Of a stretch of DNA of 64,000 nt, positions 4,577-63,729 are shown one piece after another. Under the pieces are notes generated by a model. It was not told where the DNA came from, did not search any database, and saw only the letters and a program-made list of their open reading frames with translations. Both the position numbers and the translations under genes were made by a program. Position 1 is the stretch's first letter. Each line of letters starts with the position of its first letter. Source of the DNA: an uncultured Bacillota bacterium (lineage in GTDB: Bacteria; Bacillota; Limnochordia; Limnochordales; ZCTH02-B6); contig CALJUZ010000131.1 of the NCBI GenBank assembly GCA_937975235.1, positions 23,821 to 87,820 of the forward strand. Reading direction: 5' to 3'.

Positions 4577-5128
4577 CTACTGTTCCATCTGCTTGGCCAA
4601 AAAGCCGGCCGCGGTTTCGGCCAGCTTCAGCTCCAGCTCGCCCATTTTCCGGTGCGGGTCGTTGGTGGCGATGATGACCGCGCCGATGGGATCGCCTTCG
4701 GCGATGATGGGCGCGACGGCCTGGGCGGCAAAGGCCCACGCTTCATCGTCGTCCTCGTCCAAAGCCGGTCCTTCGCCGGGACCGGACACCAGCAGCGAGC
4801 GGCGGTTTTCCATGAGCTCCTCCACGATGGAAGGCACCCGCTTGTCGAGCCACTGCTTCTTCGGCGCGCCGGCCACCGCAATGACGGCGTCGCGGTCGGT
4901 AATCAAGGCGATGTGCTCGGTGGTCTCGTGCAGCGATTCCGCGTACTCCTGGGCGAAATCCCCCAGCTCGCCGATGGGCGAGTACTTTTTCAGGATGACC
5001 TCGCCGTCGCGGTCCACAAAAATTTCCAGCGGATCGCCTTCGCGGATGCGCAGGGTGCGGCGGATTTCTTTGGGGATCACGACGCGGCCCAGATCATCTA
5101 TGCGACGCACGATTCCGGTAGCTTTCAC
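4577..5128 (-). CDS. spoVT: stage V sporulation protein T (AbrB-family regulator)
   Basis: MKATGIVRRIDDLGRVVIPKEIRRTLRIREGDPLEIFVDRDGEVILKKY (SpoVT/AbrB swapped-hairpin N-domain) plus a GAF-like C-domain. AGGAGGG RBS. Next to mfd. Confidence 0.92.
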   Translation of the reverse strand: MKATGIVRRIDDLGRVVIPKEIRRTLRIREGDPLEIFVDRDGEVILKKYSPIGELGDFAQEYAESLHETTEHIALITDRDAVIAVAGAPKKQWLDKRVPSIVEELMENRRSLLVSGPGEGPALDEDDDEAWAFAAQAVAPIIAEGDPIGAVIIATNDPHRKMGELELKLAETAAGFLAKQMEQ

Positions 5129-41212: not shown

Positions 41213-41689
41213 ATGGCGTCAGCCGATTACATAAACACGGCGTCGGCGTACCAGCCGAGGCCGGGCGACATCGTCAGCCGCTGCGGGCTTTTGTGCAACA
41301 CATGCTCCGCCTACATCGCCGGCGCTTGTCCCGGCTGCCCCAGCCTGGAGACGGGCGAGTGCGTCATCCGGGACTGCGCCGAGCTGAAAGGCACCAGCTG
41401 CCTGGACTGCCAGGCCGACTCCTGCTACCACTTCGAGGCGTACGTCTGGCGGCGCAAAACGATGAATGCCGTGGCGAAACGGTTTTTCCGCCTGACACGG
41501 CAGGGAGGCGCCGCCGCGGCGGGTGCGGCGGGCGCGGCCGCTGCGGGGCGTGCGGCCGGTGCTTGCGGCACCGGCGGGTGCGGCGGATGCGGCACGGGCG
41601 GCGGCAGCACAGGCGGCTGCGGCGGCTGCAGCCTCAAGAACGGCGGCTGTCCCGCGGCCCGGTGGGCGGAAACGCTCGCGGCAGTGTAA
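41213..41689 (+). CDS. Cys-rich protein: DUF3795-like N-terminal domain plus Ala/Gly/Cys-rich C-terminal tail
   Basis: CGLLCNTCSAYIAGACPGCPSLETGECVIRDCAELKGTSCLDCQADSCYHFE fits the DUF3795 Cys pattern. The tail is GACGTGGCGGCGTGGGSTGGCGGCSLKNGGCPA. ATG lies 7 nt after GGGGG. The 3' end overlaps the convergent pheA tail by 56 nt. Confidence 0.6.
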   Translation: MASADYINTASAYQPRPGDIVSRCGLLCNTCSAYIAGACPGCPSLETGECVIRDCAELKGTSCLDCQADSCYHFEAYVWRRKTMNAVAKRFFRLTRQGGAAAAGAAGAAAAGRAAGACGTGGCGGCGTGGGSTGGCGGCSLKNGGCPAARWAETLAAV

Positions 41690-42764
41690 CCCCGGCGTAG
41701 TCGGCCTTCGGATACGAGCCGAGCACTTTCATGTACGCGCAGCGGCGCGCCAGCGCGTCCAGCGCCTCCGCCACCCGCGCGTCCAGCGCGTGCCCGTCCA
41801 GGTCCGCGAAGAACAAGTAGTGTCCCAGCGCGCGCTTGGTGGGCCGCGACTCCAGCTTGCTCAAGTTGATGCCCCGGTTGGCGAACTCGCCCAAGGCGTG
41901 GTACAGGTTGCCGGGCGCGTCGACGGCAAAGCCGAAGACGATGGTCGTTTTGTCCCGGCCCGTCGGGCTTGTGGCGACGGCGAAACGCTCGTCCGGCGCG
42001 GCACCCGAAAGGTCCGCCCCGGCACCCGACGGGCCCGCCCCGGCGCTTGGTGGGGCAGCGCTTTTCTTCACGACAAAAAACCGGGTCGCGTTGTCCGACG
42101 CGTCCTGAATGTCTTGGGCCGCCACGGCCAAACCGTACAGCTCGGCCGACAGCTCGGTGCCCACGGCGGCCATGGTCCCGGGAGCGGCCTGCGCGACTTC
42201 CCGGGCCGCGGCGGCGGTGCTGAGGGCGGGCCGCAGCTCGGCGCCGGGAAAGTGCTGCTGCAAGTAGCGCCGGCACTGCGCCAGCGCCTGGGGATGGGAC
42301 ACGACGATCTTCACCGAGCGGCGCGCCGCTTCCAGAAGCCCGCTGCCGGGCTTCCCTTGCTCGTCGGCCGCGGCCCCTTCGCCCGGCGGGCGCACCAGCA
42401 AGTGATGCCTCACGGGAATGACAATCTCGCCGACGATCGTCAGGTCCACTTCGTGCACAAACATGTCCAGCGTGACGACGACGGTGCCCTCGATGGCGTT
42501 TTCCGCGGGCACGACGCCCACCGCGACCCGGCCGCGGTCCACCGCCGCCAGAAGCTCCGGAATGTCCCGAAACGGCACCAGCTCCGCCGTCGCCGCCGCC
42601 GAGGGGCCTTGGGCGCCGCTGCCTATGCCCCCGCCGGTGCCGCCGACGGCCGCCGCCGACGGATGAAGACCCGACACCTTTGCGGCGTAATCCCGCGCCG
42701 CCTGTTCGCTGAACGTCCCCGCCGGCCCGAGATAACCGACGGCGTATGTCTGCGAGCCTTCCAC
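41634..42764 (-). CDS. pheA: prephenate dehydratase (PDT + ACT domains) with low-complexity insertions
   Basis: VGYLGPAGTFSEQAA...VVPAENAIEGTV...SHPQALAQCRRYL...TRFFVV...GNLYHALGEFANRGINLSKLESRPTK...YLFFADLDGH...KVLGSYP. GTG 42764 lies 6 nt after GGGGTG (the ORF-track start at 42773 is also possible). Confidence 0.9.
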   Translation of the reverse strand: MEGSQTYAVGYLGPAGTFSEQAARDYAAKVSGLHPSAAAVGGTGGGIGSGAQGPSAAATAELVPFRDIPELLAAVDRGRVAVGVVPAENAIEGTVVVTLDMFVHEVDLTIVGEIVIPVRHHLLVRPPGEGAAADEQGKPGSGLLEAARRSVKIVVSHPQALAQCRRYLQQHFPGAELRPALSTAAAAREVAQAAPGTMAAVGTELSAELYGLAVAAQDIQDASDNATRFFVVKKSAAPPSAGAGPSGAGADLSGAAPDERFAVATSPTGRDKTTIVFGFAVDAPGNLYHALGEFANRGINLSKLESRPTKRALGHYLFFADLDGHALDARVAEALDALARRCAYMKVLGSYPKADYAGVTLPRAFPPTGPRDSRRS

Positions 42765-42861
42765 GTGCGTCACCCCTGGTGCAGCAGCAAATCCAGTGCG
42801 CCATCAAACGCTCTGCGCAATCAAACGTTCCGCGTTCTTAATGAAACGCCGGCGTGGTTGG

Positions 42862-42933
42862 TTACTGGAACGAGCACCCTTGCTGGAACGTGGGCCGTTG
42901 CTAGAACGCGGGCCCTTGCTGGACCCTCGACAA
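42862..42933. repeat. 4 x 18-bp head-to-tail tandem repeat
   Basis: Units are TTACTGGAACGAGCACCC, TTGCTGGAACGTGGGCCG, TTGCTAGAACGCGGGCCC and TTGCTGGACCCTCGACAA. Looser AAACG-containing copies lie at 42804-42861. Confidence 0.85.
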
Positions 42934-42977
42934 GCGACGGCGTGTACATACATCCGCGTTCCGTACAACGACCGAGT

Positions 42978-43266
42978 GGTCAGGCCACTGGACCGCACTT
43001 TTGCAACGCCGCCGCGAGGACGACGCGTTCGCAAACGCTGTTCCGGAGCCCGTTTTGACCGATTCGCCATGGAGGCGAAACGTCCTTGCGCCTGGTCCGG
43101 TGGTCGGACCGGATTTCGGGGTATGCGCAAATTGGTCCGGCCACTGGACCAGACGCTCGAACGTGGGCGCGGAGCGCCTGAGCAGCGGAAACGCCGTCGC
43201 AGCCGCCGTTTCCGCCGTTAGCCCCGGGCAAGCCGCATGCCGGCAAAGTGGTCCGGTGGTCGGACC
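42978..43266. repeat. two diverged 156-bp tandem units, each bounded by inverted 17-nt palindromic motifs (REP/BIME- or MITE-like)
   Basis: GGTCAGGCCACTGGACC (42978-94) and GGTCCGGCCACTGGACC (43134-50) are in one orientation. GGTCCGGTGGTCGGACC (43094-110 and 43250-66) is in the inverse orientation. Both internal segments are exactly 99 nt. Confidence 0.8.
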
Positions 43267-43311
43267 AAACGCGCGATCGGCAAACGCGCGCATATGACTC
43301 CCGCGCGACGG

Positions 43312-43355
43312 CCGAACAAACAACGCCTTGCAGGCAAGGCTTGCCGCCCGCAAGG
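43312..43355 (-). terminator. candidate gcv-operon terminator within overlapping palindromes
   Basis: Minus strand reads CCTTGCgggcgGCAAG, then GCCTTGC-ct-GCAAGGC, followed by GTTGTTTGTT. The four GCAAG/CTTGC segments allow mutually exclusive pairings. Confidence 0.4.
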
Positions 43356-43467
43356 CGCTGCGTCAGCCAAGACGGAGAGGGCAGCAGGGCTGCGGGGCCA
43401 CGAAGCAGTGTGGCAGCGGGCGCGCGAAGCCGCCGGGGCCGCCGGGGCCACGGGGCCGGGGAGCGCC

Positions 43468-44973
43468 TTACTCCCCGGCGGCGCCTTCCACCGGCGGGCA
43501 CCAGCACAAGTTGGGCTGGCGAGCCGCCCGGGCCTCGTCCAGCCGGCGCACCGGCGTGTTGTGGGGCGCGTTGCGCACCAGATCCGGATCTTCCTCGATC
43601 TCCCGCACGATCCGGAGCATGATGTCGACGAACTCGTCCAGCGTCTCCTTGCTCTCGGTCTCCGTGGGCTCGATCATGATGGCCTCGTCGACGATGAGCG
43701 GGAAGTAGATGGTGGGCGCGTGGACGCCGTAGTCCAAAAGGCGCTTGGCGATGTCCAGCGTGCGCACGCCCTGCTTCTTCTGGCGCACGCCCGACAGCAC
43801 GAACTCGTGCATGCAGTGGCGGTCGTAAGGCAGCTCGAAGTGGCCGGCCAGCCGCCGCATCAAATAGTTGGCATTGATGACGGCCCGCTCGCTGACGCGG
43901 CGCAGGCCCTCCGGCCCGTGGGTGCGGATGTACGTGTACGCCCGCACCAGCATGCCGAAGTTGCCGTAAAACGCCTTGATGCGGCCGACGGCGTCGGGAC
44001 GGTCGTAGTCGAGATAGAAGCGGTCGCCGTCCTTCTCCACCATGGGCACCGGCAAAAACCGCACCAGATCCTCCCGCACCGCGATGGGCCCCGCGCCGGG
44101 CCCGCCGCCGCCGTGGGGCGTGGAGAATGTCTTGTGCAGGTTGAAGTGCACGATGTCGAAGCCCATATCGCCGGGCCGGGCCCGGCCCAAAATCGCGTTG
44201 GCGTTGGCGCCGTCGTAGTACAAAAGCCCGCCCGCCTCGTGCACGATGTGCGCGATCTCGAGGATGTCCTCCTCGAACAAGCCCAGCGTGTTGGGGTTGG
44301 TCAGCATGAGGCCCGCGGTGTTGGGCCCGACCAACGCCCGCAGCTGCTCCACGTCCACGCTGCCCCGCTCGTTGGAGCCCACCTGCACCACTTTGTAGCC
44401 GCACATGGCCGCGCTGGCCGGATTCGTGCCGTGGGCCGAGTCGGGCACGATGACCTCCACCCGGTGGTGGTCGCCCCGGCTCTCATGGTATGCCTTCATC
44501 ACCATGAGGCCCAGCAGCTCCCCGTGGGCGCCCGCGGCGGGTTGCAGCGTCGCGCGGCTCAGCCCCGCGATTTCGCACAAGTACTTCTCCAGGTTGTACA
44601 TGAGCTCCAGGGCGCCTTGCACCGTCTCCTCGGGCTGGTACGGATGGACGTGCGCGAAGCCCGGCAGCGACGCCATGAGCTCGTTCACTTTCGGGTTGTA
44701 CTTCATCGTGCACGAGCCCAGCGGGTAAAAGCCCACGTCCACGCCGTAGTTGCGGCGGGACAGCGCGATGAAGTGCCGCACCGCCTCCAGCTCGCTGACC
44801 TCGGGCAGCGGCGCGTCCTGCTGCCGCTGGTGCTCCGGCGGGATCAGCTCGTCCAGCGGCAGCTCGTCTACGTCCAGCTCCGGCAGGCGATACCCGCGCC
44901 GGCCCGGCGCTCCCTTTTCGAAAATGAGCGGCACGCTGCCTTCCAAGTGATAGCCGCTGATGGCCCGGGTCAT
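43468..44973 (-). CDS. gcvPB: glycine dehydrogenase (decarboxylating) subunit 2
   Basis: [28 protein letters not shown]...[14 protein letters not shown]...[21 protein letters not shown] 44973 overlaps the gcvPA stop (ATGA), with GGAGGG RBS. The 801-aa ORF-track entry is an extension. Confidence 0.95.
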
Positions 44974-47941: not shown

Positions 47942-48219
47942 GAGGAAGCCCTCCTCCTTGAATGACGACTCGGCTACATTATTCTACCTTCCAGCCTATG
48001 GATTCCTTCGTCGGGGCGCGCCGGGCGGGCGGAGCGGTCCGGGCGGCGCCGGCCCGGGCGACCCCGGCCGCGGCAGGGTGCACGCACCGGGCCCTCGCCG
48101 GGCGCAGGCCGGAGGCGGGGCGCAAATGCAACAAAAGACGACGAAGAGGAAAGTTCCGCGCCTTTGCGAAATGGTTCCATGAGACTTCAACCCCACCATG
48201 CAGGCAGGAGGCTATGCTG

Positions 48220-49725
48220 ATGTCGACTCAAGCTACCGCCGGCGCCGACGCCCCGGTCCTGGAAAGCTGGATCGGCGGCCGGTCGGTACCGGGCAGCACG
48301 GGCCAGTTCTACCCGGACATCAACCCCGCCACGGGCGAGCTTTTGGGGCGGACGTCCGTCGCGGGGGCCGCGGAAGTGGACCTGGCCGCGCGCACGGCGT
48401 ACGAAGCCTTCAAGAAGTGGCGGCTGACCCCTGCGCCCAGGCGCGGAGAAATCCTCTACCGCATCGCCCAGCTCATCCAGGAGCGCAAGGAAGAGCTGGC
48501 GCGGCTCATGTCCCGGGAAATGGGCAAGGTGCTGTTTGAAGCCCGGGGCGACGTGCAGGAAGCCATCGACGAGTTTTACTACATGGCCGGCGAAGGCCGC
48601 CGCTTGTTCGGCTTCACCACGCCTTCGGAGATGCCGAACAAGTTCGCGTACACGGTGCGGGATCCCGTCGGCGTCGTTGGCCTCATCACGCCGTGGAACT
48701 TCCCCATTGCGGTGCCGTCGTGGAAGCTGGCGCCGGCCCTCATCGCGGGCAACGCGGTAGTCTGGAAGCCCGCGGAGGATACGCCCCTCGTTTCCCTGGA
48801 GTTCGTCAAGCTCATGGAGGAAGCGGGCCTGCCGCCGGGCGTCGTCAACGTGGTTCTGGGCCCCGGCAAGCAGACGGGCGTGCCGGTGGTGGAGCACCCG
48901 CTCATCCGGGTCATCTCGTTCACCGGCTCCACGCAGACGGGCCGCGCCATTTCGGTGGAGGCCGCGCGCCTGGGCAAGCGCGTCACGCTGGAGATGGGCG
49001 GCAAGAACGCCATTACCGTCATGGACGACGCCAACCTGGACCTGGCCACGGAAGCCATTTTGTGGAGCGCCTTCGGCACCACGGGCCAGCGCTGCACCGC
49101 GGCCAGCCGGCTGCTGGTGCACGAGGCCGTCGTGGACGAGCTGCAGGAGCGGCTGGTGGAAGGCGTCCAGAAGCTGCGCCTGGGCAACCCGCTGGATGAA
49201 GACACCAACGTGGGCCCCATCGTCAACGAGAAGCAGCTGACCCGGGTGCACGGCTACGTGGAAGTCGGCCGGCAGGAAGGCGCGCAGCTGCTGACCGGCG
49301 GCGAGACGGTGCAGGAGGGCGAACTGGCCCAAGGGTACTTCTACCGCCCGACCATCTTCACCCGGGTGAGCCCCGACATGCGCATCGCCCGGGAGGAGAT
49401 TTTCGGCCCCGTGGCGGTCATCATCCCCGTGAAGAGCCTGGAGGAGGCCATCGAGATCAACAACGACTCGGAGTACGGCCTGTCCAGCTCCATCTTCACC
49501 CAGGACGTCAACAAGGCCATGCAGGCGGCCCGGGACCTGACCACGGGCATCGTCTACATCAACCACGGCACCACCGGCGCCGAGGTGCACCTGCCCTTCG
49601 GCGGCACCCGGGGCACGGGCAACGGCCACCGCGAGGCGTCGGTGCAGGCGCTGGACAGCTTCACCGAGTGGAAGACGGTGTACATCGACTACTCCGGCAG
49701 GCTGCAGCGGGCGCAGATCGACTGA
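48220..49725 (+). CDS. NAD(P)-dependent aldehyde dehydrogenase family protein
   Basis: ITPWNFPIAV...WKPAEDTPL...LEMGGKNA (Glu)...GQRCTAASR (Cys)...EEIFGPV...PFGG. ATG 48220 lies 9 nt after AGGAGG (an ATG at 48214 is also in frame). Confidence 0.9.
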   Translation: MSTQATAGADAPVLESWIGGRSVPGSTGQFYPDINPATGELLGRTSVAGAAEVDLAARTAYEAFKKWRLTPAPRRGEILYRIAQLIQERKEELARLMSREMGKVLFEARGDVQEAIDEFYYMAGEGRRLFGFTTPSEMPNKFAYTVRDPVGVVGLITPWNFPIAVPSWKLAPALIAGNAVVWKPAEDTPLVSLEFVKLMEEAGLPPGVVNVVLGPGKQTGVPVVEHPLIRVISFTGSTQTGRAISVEAARLGKRVTLEMGGKNAITVMDDANLDLATEAILWSAFGTTGQRCTAASRLLVHEAVVDELQERLVEGVQKLRLGNPLDEDTNVGPIVNEKQLTRVHGYVEVGRQEGAQLLTGGETVQEGELAQGYFYRPTIFTRVSPDMRIAREEIFGPVAVIIPVKSLEEAIEINNDSEYGLSSSIFTQDVNKAMQAARDLTTGIVYINHGTTGAEVHLPFGGTRGTGNGHREASVQALDSFTEWKTVYIDYSGRLQRAQID

Positions 49726-53508: not shown

Positions 53509-53890
53509 GCACTTCCGCGGGCCGCGGCTGCTCCTCCCGGTCCATCCGGCACGTGCCTTCCAGCACGCCTCCCTGCTCGACGATGAGCGTCTGCATGACC
53601 GCGTCGCCGTACAGTCTTCCCGTGGCCATGAGCTCCAGGCGGCCCGACGCCTGGACCCGGCCGGTCACTTCGCCGGCGATGATGACGTTGGCCGCGGTGA
53701 TGCCGGCCCGCACCCGGCCCGACTCGCCCACCACGACGTCGCCCTCGGCCTGAATTTCCCCGTCCACGTGGCCGTCGATGCGCAGCGAGCCCGCGGCGGC
53801 CACCGTCCCTTCCAGCTTCGTATCCGGTCCGATGTACGTCTCCATCGTCCGGCCCCCCGAGCCGTTGCTTTGCTGCCTGCGACCGAGCAT
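53486..53890 (-). CDS. bactofilin (polymer-forming cytoskeletal protein, DUF583)
   Basis: IGPDTKLEGTVAAAGSLRIDGHVDGEIQAEGDVVVGESGRVRAGITAANVIIAGEVTGRVQASGRLELMATGRLYGDAVMQTLIVEQGGVLEGTC is a beta-helical bactofilin repeat pattern. ATG 53890 lies 5 nt after GGAGG. Confidence 0.85.
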   Translation of the reverse strand: MLGRRQQSNGSGGRTMETYIGPDTKLEGTVAAAGSLRIDGHVDGEIQAEGDVVVGESGRVRAGITAANVIIAGEVTGRVQASGRLELMATGRLYGDAVMQTLIVEQGGVLEGTCRMDREEQPRPAEVLNGAQGG

Positions 53891-61285: not shown

Positions 61286-61645
61286 TCAGCGGGCTCCTTC
61301 TTCGGCGGCCGACGGCTGCGGCTGCAGCAGGCCGGCCCGGGACAGCAGGTCGCCGACCGCGGCTTTCACCGCGTGAAAATCGGCCTCTCGCGCGGCTGCC
61401 CGGGCGGACACCACCAGGTGAACTCCCGGGACCAGTTGAGGCGCATAATACCGCATGCTTTCACGCAGCCAGCGCTTGACCCGGTTGCGGGTCACGGCTT
61501 TGCCCAGCTTTTTGCTGACCGAAAAGCCGACACGCGTCACGCCGTCGGGTGACTTCATGGCATGCAACACCGCCAGACGGTTCCTGCGCACGCTTCCATG
61601 CCGATAGCACTGCTGGAAGTCGTGCGCCCGCTTCATCCGCTCCAA
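61286..61645 (-). CDS. rnpA: ribonuclease P protein component
   Basis: RVGFSVSKKLGKAVTRNRVKRWLRE. Start is TTG 61645 or ATG 61636. Confidence 0.9.
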   Translation of the reverse strand: MERMKRAHDFQQCYRHGSVRRNRLAVLHAMKSPDGVTRVGFSVSKKLGKAVTRNRVKRWLRESMRYYAPQLVPGVHLVVSARAAAREADFHAVKAAVGDLLSRAGLLQPQPSAAEEGAR

Positions 61646-61650
61646 CGGCT

Positions 61651-61785
61651 TTACACCGCCAGGCGATGCCGCCCCTTCGCCCGTCGACGCTTCAGCACCC
61701 GCCGGCCTCCCGGCGTGGACATTCTACGCAAAAAGCCGTGCACCCGGCGGCGCTTGCGGCGGTTCGGTTGATAGGTGCGTTTCAC
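61651..61785 (-). CDS. rpmH: 50S ribosomal protein L34 (not in the ORF track; 44 aa)
   Basis: Manual translation gives (M)[46 protein letters not shown] 61785 lies 5 nt after GGAAGGGTGA. Confidence 0.95.
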
Positions 61786-61814
61786 GTCGTTCACCCTTCC
61801 TGAAAACTGGATCG

Positions 61815-61844
61815 ATTATAGACCACGCCGGGATCGAGCGTCAA
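61815..61844 (-). promoter_or_regulatory. rpmH promoter
   Basis: Minus strand reads TTGACG (61844-61839), 18-nt spacer, TATAAT (61820-61815). Confidence 0.7.
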
Positions 61845-61880
61845 GCGCCGCACCTTCACGCAGCGCGATTTTCCCGGACG

Positions 61881-62181
61881 GGCAAAAATAATTTTGCCGC
61901 GTTCTCTGTGGATAATTATGTGGATAACGGTCCGCGGGTTTCCCACACAGTCTTGTCGCGGTCGGGAAAATCGCCCTTCTCATGGGCGCGCGGGCGCAAA
62001 AGCCCAGCTACAGGCGCTTCCAAGGGCCCGCGGCAGGTGCCAGAAATCGACGCGCGCCAGCTAGAAGCAGGTTTTCCACCGTGTGGACAACCTGTGGAAT
62101 AGCGAAAGCCCAGCTAAAGGGGGCTCAAGGCCGAAAATCGGTCAACCATGCCGTGTACGCCTGTGGACAACCTGTGGAAAG
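61881..62181. other. oriC part 1: DnaA-box cluster between rpmH and dnaA
   Basis: Perfect TGTGGATAA boxes at 61907-15 and 61919-27. One-mismatch TGTGGACAA boxes at 62082-90 and 62162-70. Weaker boxes at 61939-47, 62072-80, 62093-101 and 62173-81. AT-rich palindrome GGCAAAA-ATAA-TTTTGCC at 61881-98. Confidence 0.85.
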
Positions 62182-62319
62182 CGGTGGATGGAGGCCGGTT
62201 TGAGACCGGCAGGAGTTGCCGCCGAAAGCCCAGAATAGAAGGTTCCTACACGACCCGACGACCAACCCGCGCGCGAAGGAGGCAGCGCAGGCCCCTGCTG
62301 TGTTGTGCCTGCACACCCC

Positions 62320-63729
62320 ATGATCGAGCAGTTGACACCCCTGTGGTCCGAGGCGGTCCGAAAACTCGTCAGAGATTCCAATGACGACAGTCTCGCCGCG
62401 TGGATGAAGGAAGCGCGGCCCGTCTCCGTCGACGACGACTGCCTCATCGTCCAAGTGCCGAACAAATTTACCCGCGACTGGGTGAGCATGCGCTACGGCG
62501 CGGCCCTCCGCAGCACGCTGGAACAGTTGTCCGGGCGTATGCGAGACGTCCGCTTCGTGCTGCCCGACGCGGCCCCGGTTCCGGCCCCGCGAGAGGCGTC
62601 TCCCGCGGGCGCGCCCGCGGCGCCTTCACCCGCCGTGCCGGCGCCACAGGCCCCAAACCCGGCCGCCGCGCGGGCCGCCGCGGTGCTGAACGATCCGCAG
62701 CCGCTGGTGCTGAACCCCCGGTATACGTTCGAGACGTTCGTCGTGGGGCCCAGCAACCGCTTCGCCCACGCGGCGTGCCTGGCGGTGGCGGAAGCGCCGG
62801 CGGAGGCGTACAACCCGCTGTTCATCTACGGCGGCGTGGGCCTGGGCAAGACCCACCTGATGCAGGCCATCGCGCACCACAGCCTGGTCAACTATCCCAT
62901 GCGGCGCATCGTGTACGTCTCTTCCGAGACGTTTACCAACGAGCTCATCAACGCGCTGCAGCACAAGGCCATGCCGGCGTTCCGGGCCAAGTACCGGTCG
63001 GTGGACATTTTGCTCATCGACGACATTCAGTTCATCGCCGGGAAGGAAAGCACCCAGGAGGAATTTTTCCATACATTTAATGCGCTGTTCGAAGTGAACA
63101 AACAGATCGTCATCTCCAGCGACCGGCCGCCGCGGGAGATCCCGCACCTGGAGGAGCGGCTGCGTTCCCGCTTTGAATGGGGCCTGGCCGCGGACATTCA
63201 GGCGCCCGACTTCGAGACCCGTACTGCAATTATTCGGAAAAAAGCCGCCGACGAAGGTCTGCAGGTGTCGCAGGACGTTTTGACCTACATCGCCGAGCAG
63301 GCCCGCTCCAACATCCGGGAGCTGGAAGGGGCGCTGACCCGGGTGGTGGCCTACGCCCGCACCGTCGGATCGCCGCTGACGGTGGAGCTGGCCGCGGAGG
63401 CGCTGAAAGACTTCATCGCCGCGCAGCGGCCGCAGCCGGTGTCCATCGCCAAAATCCAGGACTGCGTGGCCCGCTATTTCGGCCTGCGTCCGGCGGATCT
63501 CATCTCGCGCTCCCGCTCGCGCAACATCGCGTTTCCGCGGCAGATCGCCATGTACTTGGCCCGCACCATGACCGACTTGTCGCTGCCGGCCATCGGCGAG
63601 GAATTCGGCGGCCGCGACCACACCACCGTGCTGCACGGGTACGAAAAGGTGCGGGAGCAGATGGCGGCCGACCGCGCGTTGGCGGCCACGGTGGAGGAGC
63701 TCAAGCAGCTCATCTCGAACAGTGGATAG
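62320..63729 (+). CDS. dnaA: chromosomal replication initiator protein DnaA
   Basis: The N-terminus MIEQLTPLWSEAVRKL...VPNKFTRDWVSMRY aligns with Bacillus DnaA. AAA+ motif LFIYGGVGLGKTHL. Box VII and sensor motifs. C-terminal HTH IAMYLARTMTDLSLPAIGEEFGGRDHTTVLH. The GTG at 62305 is an alternative start. Confidence 0.95.
   Translation: MIEQLTPLWSEAVRKLVRDSNDDSLAAWMKEARPVSVDDDCLIVQVPNKFTRDWVSMRYGAALRSTLEQLSGRMRDVRFVLPDAAPVPAPREASPAGAPAAPSPAVPAPQAPNPAAARAAAVLNDPQPLVLNPRYTFETFVVGPSNRFAHAACLAVAEAPAEAYNPLFIYGGVGLGKTHLMQAIAHHSLVNYPMRRIVYVSSETFTNELINALQHKAMPAFRAKYRSVDILLIDDIQFIAGKESTQEEFFHTFNALFEVNKQIVISSDRPPREIPHLEERLRSRFEWGLAADIQAPDFETRTAIIRKKAADEGLQVSQDVLTYIAEQARSNIRELEGALTRVVAYARTVGSPLTVELAAEALKDFIAAQRPQPVSIAKIQDCVARYFGLRPADLISRSRSRNIAFPRQIAMYLARTMTDLSLPAIGEEFGGRDHTTVLHGYEKVREQMAADRALAATVEELKQLISNSG

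Follow-up and report, generated by a model that had tools for sequence, protein, structure and literature searches.

The 64,000-nucleotide stretch of DNA analysed here (the window) belongs to an uncultured Bacillota bacterium of the Limnochordales (GenBank assembly GCA_937975235.1, contig CALJUZ010000131.1, positions 23,821 to 87,820). Between two of its minus-strand genes, gcvPB and pheA, lies a spacer that holds four copies of a 17-nt imperfect palindrome. The same palindrome is clustered at other intergenic loci of the species, and the four copies very probably are a small cluster within a family of repetitive extragenic palindromes (REPs) that is specific to the species and organised like bacterial interspersed mosaic elements (BIMEs) and REP doublets forming hairpins (REPINs). 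The family's host, a spore-forming Limnochordales bacterium with a high GC content, is uncultured and comes from metagenomes of the thermophilic compost type. The features of the locus are as follows, with A and B denoting the two orientations of the palindrome:

41634-42764, minus strand: pheA (prephenate dehydratase, PDT and ACT domains), the downstream flank
42774-43467: the whole gcvPB-pheA spacer, lineage-specific and non-coding, which holds the repeat cluster
42978-42994, plus strand: palindromic unit A1, GGTCAGGCCACTGGACC, a singlet in A orientation, one position off the family core
42995-43093: long linker 1, from A1 to B1, 99 nt, with small internal hairpins
43080-43164: extended hairpin around the B1/A2 doublet, with arms of 31 nt that are 81% complementary
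43094-43110: palindromic unit B1, GGTCCGGTGGTCGGACC, the 5' half of an inverted doublet
43094-43150: the inverted doublet B1-23 nt-A2, REPIN-like, GGTCCGGTGGTCGGACC / GGATTTCGGGGTATGCGCAAATT / GGTCCGGCCACTGGACC
43134-43150: palindromic unit A2, GGTCCGGCCACTGGACC, the 3' half of the inverted doublet
43151-43249: long linker 2, from A2 to B2, 99 nt, with a 12-nt inverted repeat (43185-43196 / 43204-43215)
43250-43266, minus strand: palindromic unit B2, GGTCCGGTGGTCGGACC, identical to B1, a singlet with B orientation, equivalent to a minus-strand A unit
43468-44973, minus strand: gcvPB (glycine dehydrogenase subunit 2), the upstream flank

The sequences and coordinates of the four palindromes in an earlier note on this DNA (starts at 42978, 43094, 43134 and 43250) proved exact, as did the start-to-start spacing of 116, 40 and 116 nt, the two interiors of 99 nt and the short linker of 23 nt. 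The strictly alternating orientation that the note described is borne out by the asymmetric centre of the palindrome (CCAC vs GTGG). The layout is therefore that of a singlet (A1), 99 nt, a doublet (B1/A2), 99 nt and a second singlet (B2), and each 17-mer is itself palindromic, with a 7-bp stem and a 3-nt loop. Chance alone, judged from base composition, would give 0.0003 exact occurrences on both strands of 64 kb, or 0.014 when one mismatch is allowed; three exact matches and one with a single mismatch were found within 289 bp. The motif has no further copy in the window at up to two mismatches, again in agreement with the note. A match at 53641 (three mismatches) and a relaxed match at 4767 both lie within coding sequence, appear chance-like and were rejected as family copies. 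When folded as single-stranded DNA, the doublet region (43080-43164) reached -26.8 kcal/mol on the plus strand (z -5.2) and -25.8 kcal/mol on the minus strand (z -5.4). Rfam returned only sub-threshold microRNA-hairpin look-alikes for this hairpin.

We scanned JGI metagenomes for two motifs 10-40 nt apart, a combination that chance cannot produce. The paired-motif scan yielded 16 loci (loci and contigs outside the window carry L numbers). L134 is the window locus, with 99.75% identity over 4850 bp, while L132, L138, L142 and L143, from the same sample as L134, and L139 contain 4-17 copies each of the same palindrome. Scanning genome contigs for the bare 17-mer gave at least 117 chance singletons in unrelated high-GC genomes, and scans of viral contigs matched only an unrelated palindrome family. 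Altogether, at least 53 family copies were found in five clusters of the window species, all five of them intergenic. These are located between CotF and autotransporter genes, ADH and cupin genes, menH and menB (inside the menaquinone operon), DUF1992 and GntR genes, and gcvPB and pheA. The proteins beside the four other clusters (allantoinase, cupin, MenH, DUF1992 and uridine kinase) share the three NCBI accession series of the window's PheA, which represent three metagenome-assembled genomes (MAGs; REJ3xxxx/DIU83, MFS852xxxx and MFS858xxxx). These proteins also co-occur in ENA sample ERZ794971 at similar coverage (5.2x vs 5.6x). Based on the common accession series and the matching coverage in one sample, we assigned the four loci to the window species.

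The family is thus dispersed over at least five loci of one species, where its clusters are intergenic and often inside operons. The earlier note had named uniqueness of the motif to this locus as a result that would speak against its proposal; instead, the same family occurs in both orientations at no fewer than four other intergenic loci of the species. Since the palindrome, its flanks and the doublet linker all recur there, the palindrome did not arise at gcvPB-pheA. In blastn comparisons, the parts of the spacer that matched other loci were the four palindromes and the doublet only, and the long linkers did not match. Matches of A1 to family copies in L132, L138, L139, L143, L150, L162 and L164 span 42971-42998, and the family matches of B2 span 43239-43275. 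The B1/A2 doublet, linker included, is 84% identical over 57 nt to a doublet of the menH-menB cluster (L142 2659-2714); against doublets and pairs of neighbouring copies in the loci that matched A1, identity is 72-79%.

The family palindrome takes the form AAAYT-GGTCCRGCCAYYGGACC-RC, and the consensus of the oriented copies is AAAYT-GGTCC(G/A)GCCA(C/T)(T/C)GGACC-RC. Each unit is a 17-19-bp imperfect palindrome with a 7-bp stem, a 3-nt loop (CCA/TGG) and oriented flanks (AAAYT...RC). Like REPs, the units are short, GC-rich and able to form a stem-loop. Stem pairs 1-5 are nearly invariant; 41/47 copies have a standard or wobble pair at 6-12, and 43/47 at 7-11. In the orientation of the unit itself, mismatched stem positions are G.T in 26 cases and A.C in eight (binomial p = 0.003), on either chromosome strand. 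This excess hints at a single-strand function of the unit. Units of both orientations sit side by side, so that a mutation bias of the chromosome strands is an unlikely cause; selection on a one-sense single-stranded hairpin, or inheritance from an imperfect master sequence, is more likely. We discarded a strand-bias argument from the window locus alone, where all A:B pairings are G.U on the plus strand, because it involves too few independent changes.

The units are found in three arrangements. Inverted doublets consist of B, 22 or 23 nt, and A; because the ends of the linker (AGTTTG...CAAATT) also pair, the doublet of 56-60 nt folds as one hairpin. Doublets can be repeated, with A-to-B linkers of 58-61, 79-81 or 99 nt; some of these linkers show homology from one locus to another, in either orientation (z up to 8.4). 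What repeats most often is a 17-mer plus a 22-nt linker, which forms head-to-tail arrays of up to 17 copies with a 39-bp period. The spacing in the men cluster (39/98/39/39/97/39) parallels the 116/40/116 plan of the window. Across loci, conservation extends to the B-22-A doublet but not to the 133-bp unit that the earlier note had proposed. With its alternating orientation and recurring classes of linker, the family has the mosaic organisation of REP/BIME clusters, and the inverted doublet folds into one long hairpin, as REPINs do, in the window (43080-43164) and in the L138 and L142 doublets (single-stranded DNA folds, z -3.7 to -6.9). Two genes called inside arrays, of 129 aa (L149 5515-5904) and 267 aa (L162 11591-12394), have no Pfam match and are likely spurious open reading frames (ORFs) made by the repeats.

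Relatives lack the family at the orthologous junctions. There is a four-base overlap of gcvPB and pheA in L129 (PheA 61% identical), and pheA of L130 and L131 likewise overlaps an upstream gene, one that is cut at the contig end. The closest relative, L128 (PheA 70% identical), has a spacer of 111 bp without the motif. Overlapping genes or a short motif-free spacer in these relatives indicate that the spacer of ~700 bp arose after the lineages split. In a sister species (~78% nucleotide identity in the flanking genes), the ADH and cupin genes overlap and the 798-bp array-bearing segment is cleanly missing. A stretch of 20.5 kb from the sister species and one of 10 kb from L129 contain no family copy. 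The presence/absence comparison that the earlier note had suggested thus finds both junctions empty in relatives, in line with the lineage-specificity of REP families, and both clusters sit where relatives have an overlapping stop/start junction. At the ADH-cupin insertion (L132 934-1731 vs L165 9987-9989), the C-terminus of ADH changes from MEAGDDA-stop to MD-stop, and the old GGAGG ribosome-binding site of the cupin gene is kept.

Ten contigs with the same gcvPB protein have a gcvPB-pheA spacer of 704 bp that is near-identical, with few single-base differences and no gene called. The lower GC content that the earlier note had ascribed to the spacer is real (0.60-0.67 vs ~0.69 in the window), and its length, given as 690 bp in the note, is 704 bp in the gene calls. 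We considered an invertible segment at this site, a reading left without support because the ten contigs differ by scattered point differences only and show no inversion, excision or change in copy number. Array length varies between assemblies by whole multiples of 39 bp. In same-species assemblies, the lengths of the CotF array are exactly 78 bp apart, and the 820 bp compared are otherwise free of mismatches; for the DUF1992 array the difference is 39 bp. Several contigs stop close to an array, just after CotF.

These results favour the REP/BIME cluster, one of two architectures that the earlier note had proposed: clusters of the same palindrome recur at four or more other intergenic loci, with short (22 nt) and long (58-99 nt) linkers, and are not found at the orthologous junctions of relatives. 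The support for this reading lies in a family that is dispersed, clustered between genes and without copies at those junctions. Several observations weigh against it. Position counts over 43 oriented copies revealed no GTAG/CGTC end tag (the 5' flank is A-A-A-Y-T and the 3' flank R-C), and this tag marks most described REP families and is the cleavage site of the REP-associated tyrosine transposase (RAYT) in E. coli (PMC3733652). Stem covariation, which the earlier note had proposed as a check, was not significant at the two variable pairs (Fisher p 0.51 and 0.18). Within ~74 kb around the replication origin, the gcvPB-pheA cluster is the only one, and the Pfam lists of ~135 kb inspected from the window species include no transposase of any kind. 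Finally, the differences in copy number rest on short-read assemblies and could be collapse artefacts.

[quoted passage not shown] On this account, the locus would hold two adjacent 133-bp copies with terminal inverted repeats of 17-20 bp, moved by a repeat-recognising DDE transposase. In its favour, each 99-nt interior is enclosed by an A...B pair, the inverted repeat formed by A2 and B2 can be lengthened to 20 nt at 90%, the spacer as a whole is inserted DNA when compared to relatives, and a 9-bp direct repeat (GTGGAAGGC) brackets it. A MITE should have a constant interior, however, and A-to-B interiors at other loci are 58-61, 79-81 or 99 nt long, with poor conservation. A 133-bp element is nowhere repeated; only the 17-mers and the B-22-A doublet match between loci, and the commonest arrangement, the 39-bp head-to-tail array, is not a product of MITE transposition. 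Individual A...B units are not surrounded by direct repeats that could represent target-site duplications, the ends of the ADH-cupin insertion carry at most a 3-bp GGA repeat, and no transposase with matching ends was seen. We therefore consider the MITE account very improbable. A purely local origin, by slippage or tandem duplication of a hairpin-containing 156-bp segment at one junction and without mobility, is highly improbable, and is refuted as a complete explanation by the presence of the same palindrome, flanks and doublet linker at the other loci. A duplication would account for the second unit only and not for the presence of the family. Arrays do change locally by whole units, B1 is identical to B2, including a rare T at position 11, and A1 and A2 are both G6/T12. 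The two 99-nt interiors are identical at 40/99 positions in register, compared to 27 +/- 4.3 when shuffled; this value was reached by 16/5000 shuffles (p ~0.003) and by 0.4% of all 99-mers in the window. The earlier claim of a duplicated and diverged 156-bp unit is thus weakly supported by the in-register identity and the common variant of B1 and B2, and two results go against it: the local gapped alignment of the interiors is not significant (p ~0.16), and Tandem Repeats Finder reported no 156-bp period. Given these two results, homology of the interiors is plausible but weak. Long linker 1 also has weak similarity to long linker L132b (z 2.4, p ~0.02), and because of this resemblance part of the similarity between the linkers may be family consensus.

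It is very improbable that the palindromes are an array of operator sites controlling pheA, bound by a dimeric transcription factor (such as a GntR/FadR-type regulator, with sites like TGGT-N-ACCA) or by a nucleoid or architectural protein. TGGTCC-N7-GGACCA makes a good dyad, 116 bp correspond to ~11 helical turns, conservation of the palindromes contrasts with drift in the interiors, and a GntR/FCD regulator gene adjoins one array. Yet there are up to 17 copies, in 39-bp head-to-tail arrays, at unrelated loci that include a site between convergent genes and one inside the men operon. Copy number varies between assemblies, and the sites are not at the same junctions in relatives that keep the same genes. 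The conserved, oriented centre and flanks, and the excess of G.T over A.C in the unit's orientation, are also more in keeping with a single-stranded hairpin than with a duplex dyad. Secondary binding of the units by a host protein may still occur; IHF and gyrase bind the BIMEs of E. coli. Least of all do we expect a structured non-coding RNA (a pheA leader or attenuator, or a small RNA) or a gene for a small basic protein (the 108-aa ORF at 42804-43130, minus strand), which is exceedingly improbable. The region does lie upstream of pheA, its plus-strand fold nests A1:B2 outside B1:A2 (-169 kcal/mol, z -5.6; minus strand z -3.9), and the 108-aa ORF has SSKGPR-like 6-residue repeats. The fold is accounted for by the repeat palindromes themselves, however, and the spacer is missing in relatives that have pheA directly behind gcvPB. 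When the spacer was searched against Rfam 15 with gathering and E-value thresholds, no family reached threshold, and only a tRNA elsewhere in the window passed. The spacer ORFs lack the enrichment in GC at third codon positions that is seen in genes (0.58-0.69 vs 0.78-0.94) and have no Pfam match. The 108-aa ORF and three other spacer ORFs, with flat GC by codon position and never called as genes in the ten contigs, were thus rejected as coding for small proteins. The spacer is therefore non-coding, which disposes of the conserved protein-coding region that the earlier note had listed among the outcomes contrary to its proposal. We also rejected a CRISPR array, given the 39-bp period, the semi-conserved 22-nt linkers, the mixed orientations and the lack of cas genes nearby.

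We compared the family, as a REP-type family, to known repeat systems. The window family resembles the REP sequences of E. coli and other enterobacteria that are organised as BIMEs, BIME-2 arrays (Y-s-Z2-l in tandem) especially, in its short, GC-rich imperfect palindromes, which are extragenic and often between co-transcribed genes, in their alternating orientation with one short and one long linker class, in the tandem repetition of a doublet-plus-linker module, and in being lineage-specific. Unlike those elements, it has a palindrome of 17-19 bp instead of the usual ~20-40 bp, no GTAG tag, long head-to-tail arrays with a 39-bp period, and a host from the Bacillota (Limnochordales) and not a proteobacterium. 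Mycobacterial interspersed repetitive units (MIRUs) are tandem units of ~40-100 bp, intergenic and inside operons, with strain-variable copy number; they are not palindromic, and they often carry small ORFs overlapping the flanking genes. The window family shares with MIRUs the intergenic tandem arrays inside operons and the variable copy number, but is palindromic and has no coding signal. Correia elements of Neisseria are units of ~100-150 bp whose interior is conserved; they have terminal repeats of 26 bp, duplicate a TA target and are transcribed into hairpin RNA. Like these and other hairpin MITEs, the window locus has units of ~100-150 bp bounded by inverted repeats between genes, but the conserved interior, the 26-bp terminal repeats and the TA duplication are not seen in the family.

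The REP features used in this comparison are those described previously (PMC3733652, PMC3337134). The REPINs of Pseudomonas fluorescens SBW25 likewise consist of two inverted imperfect palindromes of ~16-20 nt that form one long hairpin (PMC3116915, PMC3337134). They too have an asymmetric centre that sets the orientation (TT/AA in SBW25, CCA/TGG here), several discrete inter-REP spacings, both doublet configurations, and singlets beside doublets. "Highly structured tandemly repeated REPINs" and singlets that are probable remnants are further features common to both (PMC3337134). In contrast to SBW25, the commonest doublet spacing here is only 22 nt, and the copy number of the family appears lower (one cluster in ~74 kb around oriC). 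The GTAG/CGTC-tagged REP superfamilies of Di Nocera et al. 2013 (PMC3733652) have stem-loop singlets, head-head and tail-tail dimers 20-100 bp apart, clusters, spacers with complementary ends and species-specific abundance, all as in the window family. Their defining tag is absent here, where the 5' flank is AAAYT and the 3' flank RC, and head-to-tail dimers, rare in those superfamilies, dominate some of the arrays. The text of that paper nowhere mentions Firmicutes (PMC3733652), and group 1 RAYTs have been reported in Clostridia (PMC5581495).

Other palindromic repeats turned up in the course of the scans. In another high-GC organism (L141 1-330 and L147 980-1330), the identical 17-mer GGTCCGGTGGTCGGACC occurs three times beside 30-bp tandem units starting with GTAG (GTAGCGGTCTGCTCATCGGACCGC...), an arrangement suggestive of a classical REP family that has the GTAG tag and a related stem. 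A different palindrome family, with CTAGAGGTCCGGTTTTCGGACCCCTG and GGTCCGGTGACCGGACC 35-69 bp apart, was found on one viral-classed contig and one 93-kb metagenome contig (L133 1560-1780 and L148 5950-6200; IMG/VR). A Chloroflexia MAG (L083 6255-7301) has six GGTCC-N7-GGACC palindromes with ~72-bp spacing in two groups, which are CRISPR-array-like and unrelated. In the window species, the GntR/FCD (FadR-type) regulator gene at L162 10689-11552 directly adjoins the DUF1992 array. FadR-type operators resemble TGGT-N-ACCA, which is contained in the palindrome; this is probably a coincidence.

Outside the repeat cluster, the gcvPB-pheA spacer contains two further features:

43321-43360, minus strand: a GC-rich, terminator-like hairpin with GTTGTTTGTT behind it, ~110 nt downstream from the stop codon of gcvPB, within the lineage-specific spacer and without similarity to the family
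42865-42923: an 18-nt tandem repeat of 3.3 copies (consensus CTGGAACGAGGGCCCTTG), directly upstream of the pheA ribosome-binding site and without similarity to the family or to other loci

A scan for sigma-70 promoters found none in the spacer, and neither blastn nor tblastx revealed similarity between the spacer and the rest of the window. The 9-bp direct repeat GTGGAAGGC that brackets the whole spacer lies at 43483-43491 and 42756-42764, 727 bp apart. Of the two copies, one codes for V-E-G close to the GcvPB C-terminus, and the other comprises the GTG start and next two codons of PheA (M-E-G). For a match between two junction zones of ~40 bp, a rough estimate of the chance expectation is ~0.01. 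The repeat could be a footprint of the origin of the spacer, in the form of a junction duplication, or a coincidence.

The exact GcvPB protein was found solely on metagenome contigs (ENA, Logan), and the best named relatives of PheA are from MAGs that bear the label Limnochordales or Bacillota bacterium. The replication-origin region (61600-63729) lies within the window, with dnaA at 62305-63729 on the plus strand, rnpA, yidC, jag, gidB, noc, soj and spo0J on the minus strand, and sporulation genes. In one same-species assembly (L161), gyrB lies just past the window and has an intein domain (PF14890). No glycine riboswitch was detected with Rfam upstream of gcvT (47942-48220), by gathering or E-value threshold, which is unusual for a gcvT operon in Bacillota.

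How might such a family spread? Movement between loci could possibly depend on a transposase or other enzyme acting on single-stranded hairpin DNA. The only known precedent for hairpin-based spread is the RAYT/IS200-type HUH transposase (PMC3337134, PMC3733652). In a REPIN-RAYT system the genome carries such an HUH-Y1 gene (PF01797), usually as a single copy with REPs on either side. Once in place, clusters would likely grow and shrink locally by slippage or unequal recombination. The gcvPB-pheA cluster would have arrived after the split from relatives in which gcvPB and pheA overlap, and would now lie on the path of a transcript from gcv to pheA, downstream of the weak terminator-like hairpin. 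REPs in E. coli operons offer an analogy, as elements that end or protect the upstream message. By this analogy, the effect of the cluster, if any, is probably that of a stable RNA or DNA hairpin block, acting as a partial terminator or 3'-end protector that would uncouple pheA from gcvPB. More speculatively, the family may be an untagged REPIN-like system of Bacillota that is moved not by a classical GTAG-cleaving RAYT but by another hairpin-recognising enzyme or by replication-based copying, and that lands or expands preferentially at overlapping stop/start junctions in operons, where it would separate translationally coupled gene pairs. We regard this as unlikely but conceivable; the idea of junction targeting draws on gcvPB-pheA and ADH-cupin, which overlap in relatives, and on menH-menB inside the men operon.

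REP, BIME and REPIN elements have been characterised almost entirely in Proteobacteria, with few other phyla surveyed, and our literature search on REPs or RAYTs in Limnochordia or Firmicutes found nothing specific. The family is thus a modest and apparently undescribed REP-type example in the Limnochordales group. As an untagged family with shorter palindromes and long 39-bp arrays, it widens the range of REP-type elements and provides a test case for whether RAYT-type enzymes are the sole route to REP-like families. Its importance would rise with a complete genome that lacks a RAYT or with systematic targeting of overlapping gene junctions. Several contigs of this abundant compost lineage end close to arrays, which suggests that the arrays may break short-read assemblies; they also attract spurious gene calls and could serve as strain markers of the variable-number tandem repeat type. 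At the locus itself, the gcvPB-pheA cluster marks the place where pheA and the glycine-cleavage operon have recently become separated.

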